Part shown: one piece after another, positions 3,791 through 61,461 of the stretch | Position numbering within the stretch: the stretch's first letter is position 1 | Layout: the number at the start of each line of letters is the position of its first letter | Origin: Escherichia coli O127:H6 str. E2348/69 | Lineage (GTDB): Bacteria > Pseudomonadota > Gammaproteobacteria > Enterobacterales > Enterobacteriaceae | Direction: 5' to 3' (one strand) | NCBI RefSeq assembly: GCF_000026545.1 | Contig: NC_011601.1 | DNA: 64,000 nucleotides | Notes under the pieces: model-generated | Database searches by the model: none | What the model saw: the letters and a program-made list of their open reading frames with translations, nothing else | Told to the model about the DNA's origin: nothing | Made by a program: the position numbers and the translations under genes

Positions 3791-3950
3791 TTGTTCATGC
3801 CGGGCGGCACTATCGTCGTCCGGCCTTTTCCTCTCTTACTCTGCTACGTACATCTATTTATATAAATCCGTTCAATTTGTCTGTTTTTTGCACAAACATG
3901 AAATGTCAGACAATTCCGTGACTTAAGAAAATTTATACAAATCAGCAACA

Positions 3951-39252: not shown

Positions 39253-39569
39253 ATGTTCACCTTTATTGAACTACAAGGATTTAGCAAACGCCGCCAGTTA
39301 TTGCTACCTGATAAGTAGTTCCGGGCTTTTCAGGAACTACTCATTCAAGATCCCACTGCCGGTGACATTATCGCAGGCACAGGCAGTTTTAGAAAAATTC
39401 GCTGGAACCGTTCTGGAATGGGGAAACGGGGTGCATTCGGATAATTTATTACAACGTAACACGCAATGGCCGAATTTATCTGGCGTTGATTTATCCTAAA
39501 AATGAACAGGATGATTTAACAGAAGAACAAAGAAAGGCATTGAAACTATTGTCCGAGAAGCTGCTTTAA
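39253..39569 (+). pseudogene. Disrupted RelE/ParE-superfamily (HigB-2-like) toxin gene: in-frame TAG at codon 22 plus a -1 frameshift
   Basis: Frame 1 from ATG 39253 reads MFTFIELQGFSKRRQLLLPDK* (TAG at 39316-39318) and resumes FRAFQELLIQDPTAGDIIAGTGSFRKIRWNRSGMGKRGAFG*. A different frame from about 39432 reads CIRIIYYNVTRNGRIYLALIYPKNEQDDLTEEQRKALKLLSEKLL*. Together these resemble a roughly 105-aa HigB-2-type toxin (GTGxxRKxR...GKRGGxRxIYY motifs, recalled from memory). The total span is 317 nt, i.e. 318-1. Confidence 0.6.
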
Positions 39570-39627
39570 TGTTGAAGCTCCACAAATTCCACCATGGCCG
39601 AAATGCCAACGGAGGCATTGAAAACAG

Positions 39628-39924
39628 ATGAAAGATGAATTATTTGCTGATCTTCTTGCCAGCGCAGAAGAAATGGTACGCATCGAAAAGGGTGAAGAAA
39701 CGCCTGAACCAGAGCACGTCCATACTTTTAGCGAAATCGATGTAAAAGCGATCCGTGAAGCAACGGGTTTACGTCAGCAAGATTTTGCTGTCGCCGTAGG
39801 GGTAAGTTATGACCTGGTCAAAAGCTGGGAAACCAAACGCCGTCAGCCTACCGGAGCACCCCGAAAATTGCTCCTGCTTTTGCAAGCGAATCCTTTCATT
39901 ATCAATCAATTGAAAACAATCTAA
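39628..39924 (+). CDS. HTH (XRE-like) antitoxin-type DNA-binding protein, HigA-2-like, 98 aa, apparently intact
   Basis: ORF 39628..39924 (+), 98 aa: MKDELFADLLASAEEMVRIEKGEETPEPEHVHTFSEIDVKAIREATGLRQQDFAVAVGVSYDLVKSWETKRRQPTGAPRKLLLLLQANPFIINQLKTI; GGAGG ribosome-binding site 12 nt upstream; HTH segment LRQQDFAVAVGVSYDLVKSWE; lies directly downstream of the toxin remnant. Confidence 0.7.
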   Translation: MKDELFADLLASAEEMVRIEKGEETPEPEHVHTFSEIDVKAIREATGLRQQDFAVAVGVSYDLVKSWETKRRQPTGAPRKLLLLLQANPFIINQLKTI

Positions 39925-45146: not shown

Positions 45147-45227
45147 ACGCCCGGACTGGCCCCTAAACCTGCGCGATTAGGCGTTCACGCCGCATCTGGC
45201 AACGAACGCCTTGCCTGACATAAAAGT

Positions 45228-45253
45228 GCCGGAGAATATCTCCGGTCTTTTTA
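45228..45253 (+). terminator. Hairpin plus T-run downstream of tex
   Basis: gccggaga-ata-tctccggtc followed by ttttt. Confidence 0.6.
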
Positions 45254-51814: not shown

Positions 51815-52001
51815 GTTCTCTCCTCTTTTGTCGATTGCCCGATGTGACGCTAAAGCGTCTTATCGGGCCTGTACGTTGCACGAGAGTCTGACATTAGCGC
51901 AGAATTACCTCAGCAAATCCAATCTCTTCGTTTCCCCACGATAATATGACCAACCTCTCATAATTTAAATTTACCCCGCTCTGGTGATTCTCAAGCACGT
52001 A

Positions 52002-52177: not shown

Positions 52178-53494
52178 ATGCCATTAGTCATTGTTGCTAT
52201 CGGTGTAATCTTGTTATTACTCCTGATGATCCGCTTCAAAATGAACGGTTTCATCGCTCTCGTCCTCGTGGCGCTTGCTGTTGGATTAATGCAAGGAATG
52301 CCGCTGGATAAAGTTATTGGCTCCATCAAAGCCGGTGTCGGCGGAACGCTCGGTAGCCTTGCCCTGATCATGGGTTTTGGCGCAATGCTGGGCAAAATGC
52401 TGGCAGACTGCGGTGGCGCACAACGTATCGCCACCACGCTGATTGCTAAATTTGGTAAAAAACACATCCAGTGGGCGGTGGTACTGACCGGTTTTACCGT
52501 TGGTTTTGCCCTGTTCTATGAAGTGGGTTTCGTGCTGATGCTGCCGCTGGTGTTTACCATCGCGGCTTCCGCGAATATTCCACTGCTGTATGTTGGTGTA
52601 CCAATGGCGGCTGCACTGTCTGTGACCCACGGCTTCCTGCCACCGCATCCGGGTCCGACTGCGATTGCCACCATTTTCAATGCCGATATGGGTAAAACCC
52701 TGCTGTACGGTACTATTCTGGCAATCCCGACCGTTATTCTCGCCGGTCCGGTTTACGCTCGCGTGCTGAAAGGTATCGATAAGCCAATCCCGGAAGGTCT
52801 GTACAGCGCGAAAACCTTCAGCGAAGAAGAGATGCCAAGCTTTGGCGTCAGCGTCTGGACTTCTCTGGTGCCGGTTGTGCTGATGGCGATGCGTGCAATT
52901 GCCGAAATGATCCTGCCGAAAGGTCACGCTTTCCTGCCGGTGGCGGAGTTCCTCGGTGACCCGGTAATGGCAACGCTGATTGCCGTGCTGATTGCTATGT
53001 TCACCTTTGGTCTGAACCGTGGTCGTTCAATGGATCAGATTAACGACACGCTGGTTTCTTCCATCAAAATCATCGCGATGATGCTGTTGATCATCGGTGG
53101 TGGCGGTGCGTTCAAGCAGGTGCTGGTAGACAGCGGCGTGGACAAATACATTGCTTCCATGATGCACGAAACCAACATTTCTCCGCTGCTGATGGCCTGG
53201 TCGATTGCCGCCGTACTGCGTATCGCGCTGGGTTCCGCAACCGTTGCGGCAATCACTGCGGGGGGTATCGCGGCACCACTAATTGCAACGACGGGTGTTA
53301 GCCCGGAACTGATGGTTATTGCGGTTGGTTCCGGTAGTGTGATTTTCTCTCACGTGAACGATCCGGGCTTCTGGCTGTTCAAAGAGTACTTTAACCTGAC
53401 TATCGGCGAGACCATCAAGTCCTGGTCGATGCTGGAAACCATTATCTCGGTGTGCGGTCTGGTAGGCTGTCTGCTGCTGAATATGGTGATTTGA
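52178..53494 (+). CDS. gntT: High-affinity gluconate:H+ symporter GntT, 438 aa
   Basis: ORF 52178..53494 (+), 438 aa; GntP-family permease (MPLVIVAIGVILLLLLMIRFKMNGF...). Confidence 0.95.
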   Translation: MPLVIVAIGVILLLLLMIRFKMNGFIALVLVALAVGLMQGMPLDKVIGSIKAGVGGTLGSLALIMGFGAMLGKMLADCGGAQRIATTLIAKFGKKHIQWAVVLTGFTVGFALFYEVGFVLMLPLVFTIAASANIPLLYVGVPMAAALSVTHGFLPPHPGPTAIATIFNADMGKTLLYGTILAIPTVILAGPVYARVLKGIDKPIPEGLYSAKTFSEEEMPSFGVSVWTSLVPVVLMAMRAIAEMILPKGHAFLPVAEFLGDPVMATLIAVLIAMFTFGLNRGRSMDQINDTLVSSIKIIAMMLLIIGGGGAFKQVLVDSGVDKYIASMMHETNISPLLMAWSIAAVLRIALGSATVAAITAGGIAAPLIATTGVSPELMVIAVGSGSVIFSHVNDPGFWLFKEYFNLTIGETIKSWSMLETIISVCGLVGCLLLNMVI

Positions 53495-53506
53495 TAATAC
53501 TGATAG

Positions 53507-53593
53507 CCGGATGCGGCGTGAACGCCTTATCCGGCCTACGATTCGGCATTAATTAGTAGGCCGGATAAGACGCGTCAAGCGTCGCATCCGGCA
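53507..53593. repeat. BIME: two inverted REP elements between convergent gntT and malQ
   Basis: gccggatgcggcgtgaacgccttatccggcctac (53507-53540) and taggccggataagacgcgtcaagcgtcgcatccggca (53558-53593) in opposite orientation. Confidence 0.85.
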
Positions 53594-53604
53594 TCAACCG
53601 CACT

Positions 53605-55689
53605 CTACTTCTTCTTCGCTGCCGCTCTGCGCCGTCTGTCCAAATCCTTCAGCAACTTGTTCACGCCATCATCGGCAAACATCGTCTCAAGCGTTGCGGA
53701 AAGCTTGCGTCGCCAGTTTTTGTACTGGTAGCTGGTGCCAGGAATATTTACCGGTTCGGCCATATCCAGCCAGTCTTCTGGCTGAAGCCCTAACAGAGCA
53801 CTGTTACTATCAGCGATATAACGTTGCAAACCACGATTAAGCATCGGCGTCATCGACATTAACGATGCCTTATGCCCCGCACGTTTTGGCAGGCAACCAT
53901 GTTTATGCAGTGCATCCAGCAACCCTTGCTTCGCCAGTTCGCGATCCTGATACAGACCGCGCAATACCACTTCATCCGGGTACAGCCCCAGCGTTTTACC
54001 CAGTGTTAAATCCCCGCTCTCCCAGTAGCCACGCAGTGTAGGCAGGTCGTGTGTCGCCGCAACCGCCATCGACTGCTCCGGATACGCTTTCGGCGCGCGG
54101 AATGTCTTCTCGTGGTCGCTTTCGAAATAGAGCACTTTGTAGGAGTACACACCGCTGCTGCGCAGTTTACCGACAATCTCTACCGGTACAGTGCCGAGGT
54201 CTTCACCAATCACCATGCAGCGATGGCGCTTACTTTCGAGTGCCAGAATCGAGAGCAGATCATCTACCGGATAGTGAACATACGCGCCCTGATCTGCCGT
54301 CTCGCCATACGGTATCCACCACAAACGCAGCATCGACATCACGTGATCAATTCGTAATGCGCCGCAGTTTTGCATATTGGCACGCAACAGCTCGATAAAC
54401 GGTTCATAGGCACGCGCGGTGATGATATGCGGGTCCATTGGCGGCAATCCCCAGTTCTGCCCCAACGGGCCGAGGATATCCGGCGGCGCGCCAACCGACG
54501 CTTTCAGGCAATACAGTTCACGGTCGCACCAGGTTTCTGCCCCACCTTCTGCTACACCAACGGCCAGATCACGATACAAGCCAATCGGCATTTCATAGCC
54601 CTGGCTTATCTCCCAGCAGGCGGCAAACTGGCTGTAAGCCAGCCACTGCAACCAGAGATAAAAATCGACGTCATCACGATGTTCTTCGCAGAACTGGCGC
54701 ACTTCTGGTGAATCCACGTTCTGATACATCTCTGGCCATGCTGGCCAGCCCCAGCGCATTTCGTCCTCTTTCACTTGCTGGGCATGTAGCGCATCAAAGG
54801 CTGCCTGCCAGAACAGGCTGTCGCCCTGCTCTGCAACAAACTGGCGAAACGCGGTCATCTGCTCATCATCACGTTGCGCGAAACCTTTCCACGCCATTCG
54901 TAATGCTGTCATTTTTAGGGTGGTAACCGTGGAGTAATCAACCCAGTCGGCATCCCGCGCCTGTTGCAGCGTCTGTTGCGTGGTCGGCAACTTCCACCAG
55001 GCCAGAGCCTCTTCGCTAAGATGGAAATCTTCAACGGCGTTAACGTCGATATAAATCACATTCAGCCAACGGCGAGAAGACGGGCTATACGGGCTGGCAC
55101 TTTCCGGATTTGCCGGATAGAGCGCATGAATCGGGTTCAGACCGATGAACGACCCGCCACGTTTTGCCACATCCACCAGCATCGCTTTGAGATCGCCAAA
55201 ATCCCCAATACCCCAGTTTTTTTCCGATCGCAGCGTATAAAGCTGAACGCAGGCACCCCACAGCTTTTGTTTGTTCAGCAACGCCTGCGGTTCGTAACAG
55301 CGTTTCGGGGCGACAATCACCCGGCAATGCGCGCGCTGGTCGTCCTGGGTGAGTATCAGCGTGTGATAACCTTCCGGCAGCTTCGTCGGTAGATTGAACG
55401 CTTTGCCCCCCGTTACATGGCCTTTGTACTGCGTTCCTTCTTCGGTGGTCAGCAGCCAGCTATATTCGCCGCTGCCCTCCACCACCATCGGCATTTTTTT
55501 GCCGCTGGTATAAACCATGACATTCGGGACTGGTGTTACCGCCACTTTCGTGGCGGTACGTTGATGCATCGCGTCAAGCAAACGCCGTTTGGTTTCGGCG
55601 CTAATCGACTGCGGTTTACCGTGGGCATTGATGTAATTGGGGCTAATCCCCGCCGCCAGCGCGGCATTATCCAGACGTTTGCTTTCCAT
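53605..55689 (-). CDS. malQ: 4-alpha-glucanotransferase (amylomaltase) MalQ, 694 aa
   Basis: ORF 53605..55689 (-), 694 aa. Confidence 0.96.
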   Translation of the reverse strand: MESKRLDNAALAAGISPNYINAHGKPQSISAETKRRLLDAMHQRTATKVAVTPVPNVMVYTSGKKMPMVVEGSGEYSWLLTTEEGTQYKGHVTGGKAFNLPTKLPEGYHTLILTQDDQRAHCRVIVAPKRCYEPQALLNKQKLWGACVQLYTLRSEKNWGIGDFGDLKAMLVDVAKRGGSFIGLNPIHALYPANPESASPYSPSSRRWLNVIYIDVNAVEDFHLSEEALAWWKLPTTQQTLQQARDADWVDYSTVTTLKMTALRMAWKGFAQRDDEQMTAFRQFVAEQGDSLFWQAAFDALHAQQVKEDEMRWGWPAWPEMYQNVDSPEVRQFCEEHRDDVDFYLWLQWLAYSQFAACWEISQGYEMPIGLYRDLAVGVAEGGAETWCDRELYCLKASVGAPPDILGPLGQNWGLPPMDPHIITARAYEPFIELLRANMQNCGALRIDHVMSMLRLWWIPYGETADQGAYVHYPVDDLLSILALESKRHRCMVIGEDLGTVPVEIVGKLRSSGVYSYKVLYFESDHEKTFRAPKAYPEQSMAVAATHDLPTLRGYWESGDLTLGKTLGLYPDEVVLRGLYQDRELAKQGLLDALHKHGCLPKRAGHKASLMSMTPMLNRGLQRYIADSNSALLGLQPEDWLDMAEPVNIPGTSYQYKNWRRKLSATLETMFADDGVNKLLKDLDRRRRAAAKKK

Positions 55690-61423: not shown

Positions 61424-61449
61424 AGCCGGATAATGCATTGGATCCGGCT
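61424..61449. terminator. Hairpin between convergent malT and rtcA
   Basis: agccggat-aatgcattgg-atccggct (8-bp stem), 5 nt after the malT stop. Confidence 0.5.
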
Positions 61450-61461
61450 TACATCTTTATA

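Follow-up and report, generated by a model that had tools for sequence, protein, structure and literature searches.

Two classes of BIME have been described in Escherichia coli. BIME-1 combines a Y and a Z1 REP unit with an L linker that bears an IHF site (PMC3333891), and BIME-2 consists of two to 12 alternating Y and Z2 units in inverse orientation, separated by short variable linkers (PMC3333891; PMC1187871). A comparable architecture is found in the REPINs of Pseudomonas fluorescens (Bertels and Rainey 2011, PMC3116915), where inverted REPs together with their spacer form one long hairpin. In E. coli K-12, REP254 (3547888–3547974, 87 bp) lies between malQ and gntT and REP251 (3525479–3525576) between nudE and mrcA, according to the supplement of bioRxiv 10.64898/2026.03.23.713779. 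The K-12 REP numbers given for loci in the window are taken from this preprint supplement; the annotation of NC_000913.3 contains no repeat_region features. The two loci discussed below are already known through these REP numbers in K-12, and the cataloguing of E. coli REP/BIME elements goes back decades.

The window analysed here is a stretch of 64,000 nt from E. coli O127:H6 strain E2348/69 (NC_011601.1). Its sequence is identical to the reverse strand of the E2348/69 record NZ_CP059840.2, whose annotation supplied the gene map. Both its gntT/malQ and its mrcA/nudE gap contain a genuine REP/BIME element at convergent gene ends, as the initial annotation had proposed, and the extents of the K-12 orthologues REP254 and REP251 are those of the E2348/69 elements. 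We are highly confident that both are members of the E. coli REP/BIME family that have been inherited vertically in place. For class assignment, the twelve-unit Y/Z2 array REP325 of K-12 and the BIME-1 copies at asnB-nagD, gyrB-yidB and mgtA-ridA served as references, the names Y and Z1/Z2 being derived from the unit that is common to both BIME classes and not from a published consensus figure.

According to the record annotation, gntT (52178–53494, + strand, stop codon 53492–53494) and malQ (53605–55689, − strand, stop codon 53605–53607) converge on a gap of exactly 110 nt (53495–53604). This gap contains a minimal BIME-2 made up of one Y unit, one Z2 unit and a 16-nt linker, a single pair compared with the 12 units of model BIME-2s such as REP325. 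The first unit, GCCGGATGCGGCGTGAACGCCTTATCCGGCCTAC (53506–53539, + strand), is identical at 34 of 34 positions to the Y unit of the K-12 BIME-1s and is called Y because its type occurs in both BIME classes. Its CTAC foot (53536–53539) is followed by the linker GATTCGGCATTAATTA (53540–53555) and then by GCCGGATGCGACGCTTGACGCGTCTTATCCGGCCTAC (53556–53592, − strand; GTAG on the + strand at 53556–53559), which matches the Z2 unit of REP325 at 34 of 37 positions and has a G...C in its stem in place of T...A. The units are inverted and joined tail-to-tail (CTAC-16 nt-GTAG), and the foot tetranucleotides are intact in both. The inverted REP pair that had been noted here is thus confirmed: each unit matches the REP pattern with zero mismatches, against an expectation of 0.00 matches from shuffles of the window, and the local alignment scores to the reference units are 34 for Y and 30 for Z2, compared with best scores of 15–18 in 40 shuffled windows. 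With the gntT/malQ sequence as query, the median number of matching places per genome is at least 35; this figure underestimates the true number and identifies a multi-copy family. A scan of the whole window at the Rfam gathering thresholds returned no match and no curated family covering these repeats.

The E2348/69 copy shares with REP254 the flanking genes, the 87-bp extent, the Y-linker-Z2 order and the distances to both stop codons, and the two are about 96% identical over 211 nt. They differ at two of the 16 linker bases. At two further positions the E2348/69 copy is nearer to the reference units than REP254, having GAAC instead of GACC in the Y loop and GCGTCGC instead of GCATCGC in the Z2 head. 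Over a larger segment at this locus, 53200–53900 (701 nt), E2348/69 shares only about 95% identity with most E. coli, including K-12, and 99% is reached by only 13 records. So deep a divergence is unusual within the species and suggests that the 3' end of malQ belongs to a haplotype that is either old or imported.

All four REP units at the two sites are predicted to fold as stem-bubble-stem hairpins. At gntT/malQ the Y unit folds with −11.4 kcal/mol (as DNA) and the Z2 unit with −12.7 kcal/mol (z −5.6), and the whole two-unit element (53501–53596) forms one long REPIN-like hairpin with −63.8 kcal/mol on the + strand (z −9.4) and −63.2 kcal/mol on the − strand (z −8.4). The Y hairpin starts 11 nt past the gntT stop codon and the Z2 head lies 12 nt from that of malQ; at both sites the hairpins begin 11–13 nt past a stop codon, with the exception of the one facing mrcA. 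Hairpins located between convergent genes would also be expected of bidirectional intrinsic (Rho-independent) terminators that merely resemble REPs. In Citrobacter amalonaticus this position between gntT and malQ is indeed occupied by a classical bidirectional terminator, and REPs are present in 78 of the 306 bidirectional terminators reported (bioRxiv 10.64898/2026.03.23.713779). The gntT/malQ hairpins, however, are flanked by a U tract on neither side, a terminator scan of 53300–53800 found no intrinsic terminator, and the sequences are exact REP units that are repeated tens of times per genome. Furthermore, the supplement of the same preprint lists + strand Rho-binding peaks, taken from a published in vitro screen, that overlap REP251 and REP254 and, by a reading of its table columns, a bicyclomycin-sensitive read-through transcript at REP254 that runs antisense into malQ. 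We consider it extremely improbable that these hairpins are terminators with a chance likeness to REPs, and treat them as REP units.

The second element lies between mrcA (27574–30126, + strand, stop codon 30124–30126) and nudE (30292–30852, − strand, stop codon 30292–30294), whose names had been given correctly judging by the record annotation. On sequence grounds it is a decayed, single-copy BIME-1 (RIB/RIP) of the form Y-L-Z1, recognizable by the remainder of its units and by its BIME-1 context. The Y-type unit (30182–30214, + strand) has lost one nucleotide and measures 33 nt; it matches the reference Y at 31 of 34 positions and ends in CAAC (30211–30214) instead of CTAC. An L linker of 35 nt (30215–30249) separates it from a Z1-type unit (30250–30278, − strand) that matches at 24 of 29 positions, has the foot GTAA (30250–30253) instead of GTAG and ends with its head 13 nt from the nudE stop codon. 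A conserved BIME-1 flanking motif (TTGCTGACAAAGTGC..TTGTT.AT, 30156–30181) precedes the Y unit outside the palindromic units and can be aligned with its counterparts next to the BIME-1s of asnB-nagD and mgtA-ridA; the motif expected on the right-hand side is missing, since the end of nudE lies 13 nt away. The initial annotation had described a single canonical REP at 30181–30212. A REP is indeed present there, but it is not single, being accompanied by the inverted Z1 unit, and it is not canonical, the GTAG/CTAC feet being lost from both units, as they are in K-12, which has TAAC and ATAA at these positions. With both feet mutated, the element should no longer be recognized by the REP-associated transposase.

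Although worn in comparison with the gntT/malQ pair, both mrcA/nudE units rise above the shuffles, so that a scan for REP profiles recovers REPs at both sites. The Y unit scores 27 against a maximum of 18 in 40 shuffled windows and its hairpin has −9.6 kcal/mol; the Z1 unit, which surfaced in a relaxed scan, scores 19 against a shuffle maximum of 15 and its hairpin has −7.9 kcal/mol (z −4.5). The decayed units are too diverged to seed repeat matches genome-wide. The L linker used as the sole query gives a median of six places per E. coli genome, and the places examined lie downstream of asnB-nagD, gyrB-yidB and mgtA-ridA, each flanked by Y and Z1. The layout common to the BIME-1 alignment consists of the left flanking motif, Y, a linker with the core AAAWTCAATANATTGCA and Z1. 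The mrcA/nudE element shares it, including the 35-nt length of the linker, with REP251 and these three copies, and differs from other BIME-1s in its decayed units and mutated feet.

Within the linker, the IHF-like core ATTCAATAAATTG (30227–30239) agrees with the IHF consensus WATCAANNNNTTR at eight of nine specified bases, and the 35-nt linker aligns with those of four other BIME-1 copies in which the core AAAWTCAATANATTGCA is conserved. Matches to the consensus with one mismatch are barely enriched in the whole window (65 found, 48 expected) and are non-discriminating; the argument for IHF therefore rests on the homology of the L linker and not on the motif alone. No match to the consensus with up to one mismatch was found in the gntT/malQ gap. 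The statement in the initial annotation that these repeats bind IHF and gyrase consequently merges two classes: an IHF-type site is present only in the mrcA/nudE L linker, and gyrase is reported for BIME-2 (PMC3333891; PMC6379681).

Just past the mrcA stop codon and outside the BIME, a terminator-like hairpin followed by a T run is present at 30129–30152 (+ strand; inverted repeat AAAAAGGCACC/GGCGCCTTTTT), which the terminator scan did not call. Its stem contains a mismatch in E2348/69 (GGCACC..GGCGCC), whereas the K-12 stem is clean (GGCGC-TTCG-GCGCC), and the intrinsic terminator of mrcA may therefore be weaker in E2348/69.

Other REP-like sequences occur in the window. A single degenerate Z2-like REP that the initial annotation does not mention lies in the nfuA-gntT gap (51837–51875, + strand), 22 nt past nfuA, and corresponds to K-12 REP253; it matches at 30 of 39 positions, scores 22 against a shuffle maximum of 17 and has a hairpin of −12.9 kcal/mol. 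The yhgF-feoA gap (45170–45200, − strand) holds the counterpart of REP252, a truncated Y-type remnant that has lost its tail arm and folds no better than shuffles, followed by a classical intrinsic terminator at about 45217–45250. Past tsgA, at the position of REP248, a short G+C-rich hairpin followed by a T run (TGCCGGGCGGCACTATCGTCGTCCGGCCTTTTCC, 3797–3835, + strand) looks like a REP-like intrinsic terminator. In the 42-nt convergent gap between malT and rtcA, the palindrome GCCGGATAATGCATTGGATCCGGCTTAC (61425–61452) has REP-like arms, but resembles Y and Z units no more than expected by chance; either a decayed REP or a mere terminator stem is possible. Apart from repeats, E2348/69 has a small strain-specific toxin-antitoxin insertion between envZ and pckA (about 39253–39924), consisting of a NadS-family gene and a frameshifted RelE/ParE toxin pseudogene, where envZ and pck are adjacent in K-12; hofP (about 25319–25722) is annotated as a frameshifted pseudogene.

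Next, both sites were compared across 5,426 complete E. coli genomes. The mrcA/nudE region is found in one piece in 5,422 of these and its BIME-1 is effectively fixed. The gntT/malQ site varies between strains and occurs in three states. About 2,325 genomes carry the two-unit BIME, with two linker haplotypes: 898 genomes are identical to the window and 1,428 are of the K-12 type with two SNPs. In 3,056 genomes, including O157 and BL21, 66 bp are missing and a perfect palindrome of 21 nt remains (GCCGGATGC-ATC-GCATCCGGC). The Y unit stands alone in 35 genomes, through a 45-bp deletion between CGGCAT direct repeats. All three allele types keep a strong hairpin (−63.8, −26.9 and −20.4 kcal/mol), whose distance from each of the two stop codons is unchanged. 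Since the REP interior at this place is missing from more than half of the E. coli genomes, the full BIME is dispensable. The idea that such repeats mark where rearrangements are tolerated found no support beyond these small local deletions.

Polymorphism among strains, together with a long hairpin of the REPIN type and intact GTAG/CTAC feet, is also what would be seen if the gntT/malQ pair were a currently mobile REPIN moved by RAYT/TnpA-REP, the strain differences then being excision or insertion events. TnpA-REP cleaves and recombines BIMEs in vitro (PMC3333891) and REPIN excision has been seen in Pseudomonas (PMC3116915). The rayT gene was located in K-12 and is reported to be absent from some B2 strains (PMC3333891). 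The linker argues otherwise. With its REP feet it occupies one place per genome in 2,325 genomes and a second copy in none of them; being confined to this locus, it gives no sign of a recent copy elsewhere. Recent duplication, as in the REPINs of P. fluorescens, would leave a near-identical doublet with its spacer at another site, and in these 2,325 genomes such a doublet was found nowhere else. The P. fluorescens elements share with gntT/malQ the existence of alleles that lack most of the doublet, but they belong to another sequence family, and the remnant at gntT/malQ is a symmetric palindrome with a 9-bp stem compared with their asymmetric footprint. Moreover, the allele of the 35 genomes is a plain deletion between direct repeats. 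Diverged orthologues of the element are shared by E. coli, E. albertii-like genomes and a third Escherichia lineage, so that it is old and vertically inherited. Current mobility is thus very unlikely in our judgement, and the endpoints of the collapse described below speak against it as well.

The short palindrome is made of two REP heads and must therefore derive from REPs. Among the relevant taxa, a species-wide pattern scan returned only E. albertii and one Enterobacter MAG. The E. albertii contig, about 90–92% identical to E. coli (a normal divergence), carries the 21-nt palindrome with the loop GCC, and this copy raised the doubt that the short allele might not be derived. That reading was set aside, as further Escherichia loci favour deletion. 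Judged by the DNA identity of gntT, contigs that share one GntT protein separate into several lineages: E. albertii-like genomes show the short form in some cases and a 101-nt decayed orthologue of Y-linker-Z2 in others, a third Escherichia lineage carries the long form, and contig L045, about 95% identical to E. coli, has the short palindrome with an ATC loop. In the gntT/malQ gap of the Enterobacter MAG a different palindromic repeat is found, and that of C. rodentium contains Citrobacter-type REPs.

The three bases adjoining the deletion are specific to the lineage and agree between the long and short alleles of one lineage, being GCC in E. albertii-like genomes, ATC in K-12-type E. coli and GTC in B2 strains and the third lineage. 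It follows that the BIME is ancestral and that it collapsed at least twice with the same endpoints. No short allele that combines B2-type flanks with a GTC loop was found when searched for. The collapse to GCCGGATGC-NNN-GCATCCGGC corresponds to a deletion of 66 bp in E. coli and of 57 bp in E. albertii-like genomes. The endpoints share a microhomology of only 2 nt and are not both at CT, the reported cleavage dinucleotide of TnpA-REP; at most one of them, in the Z2 loop on the bottom strand, can be placed at CT. A hairpin-driven deletion would be the likelier cause of the collapse.

The present analysis shows the sequence identity, class, structure, orthology and population variation of the two elements; for E2348/69 we infer protein-binding and RNA effects at both sites from the literature. 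The gntT/malQ element is likely to be transcribed in both convergent mRNAs, so that each would carry a very stable 3' hairpin 11–12 nt past its stop codon. REPs can act as partial Rho-dependent terminators and as decay blocks, and their presence between convergent genes is associated with higher expression of the two (bioRxiv 10.64898/2026.03.23.713779); by analogy, the gntT/malQ hairpin may block 3'-to-5' exonucleases and may pause RNA polymerase ahead of Rho-dependent termination. REPs that lie within 15 nt of a stop codon reportedly reduce translation (PMC12306157), and the hairpin could possibly impede terminating ribosomes. Terminal REPs, on the other hand, do not lengthen mRNA half-lives genome-wide (bioRxiv 10.64898/2026.03.23.713779), and the mRNA stabilization that had been attributed to these repeats holds only in a context-dependent sense. 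As DNA, the gntT/malQ Y unit would be of the kind cleaved by gyrase, whose cleavage is enriched in BIME-2 and mainly in Y units (PMC6379681); the part of the supplements of that paper available to us names neither gntT nor malQ. The conserved linker at mrcA/nudE is probably of the IHF-binding type.

The anatomy of the mrcA/nudE element is thereby corrected and the functions known from the literature are divided between the two sites, while gntT/malQ becomes a three-state strain marker whose alleles have been counted in 5,426 genomes. Only the parallel collapse of the doublet might be of specialist interest. Tentatively, and as a possibility that we do not favour, its identical endpoints could be the trace of a specific pathway, directed by structure, in which REP doublets are cut back to a minimal hairpin. 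In that case, selection at gntT/malQ would keep the hairpin and not the REP sequence. Having taken place in two species, the collapse represents a small natural experiment, which suggests that what is retained at the 3' end is a hairpin and not the full pair.
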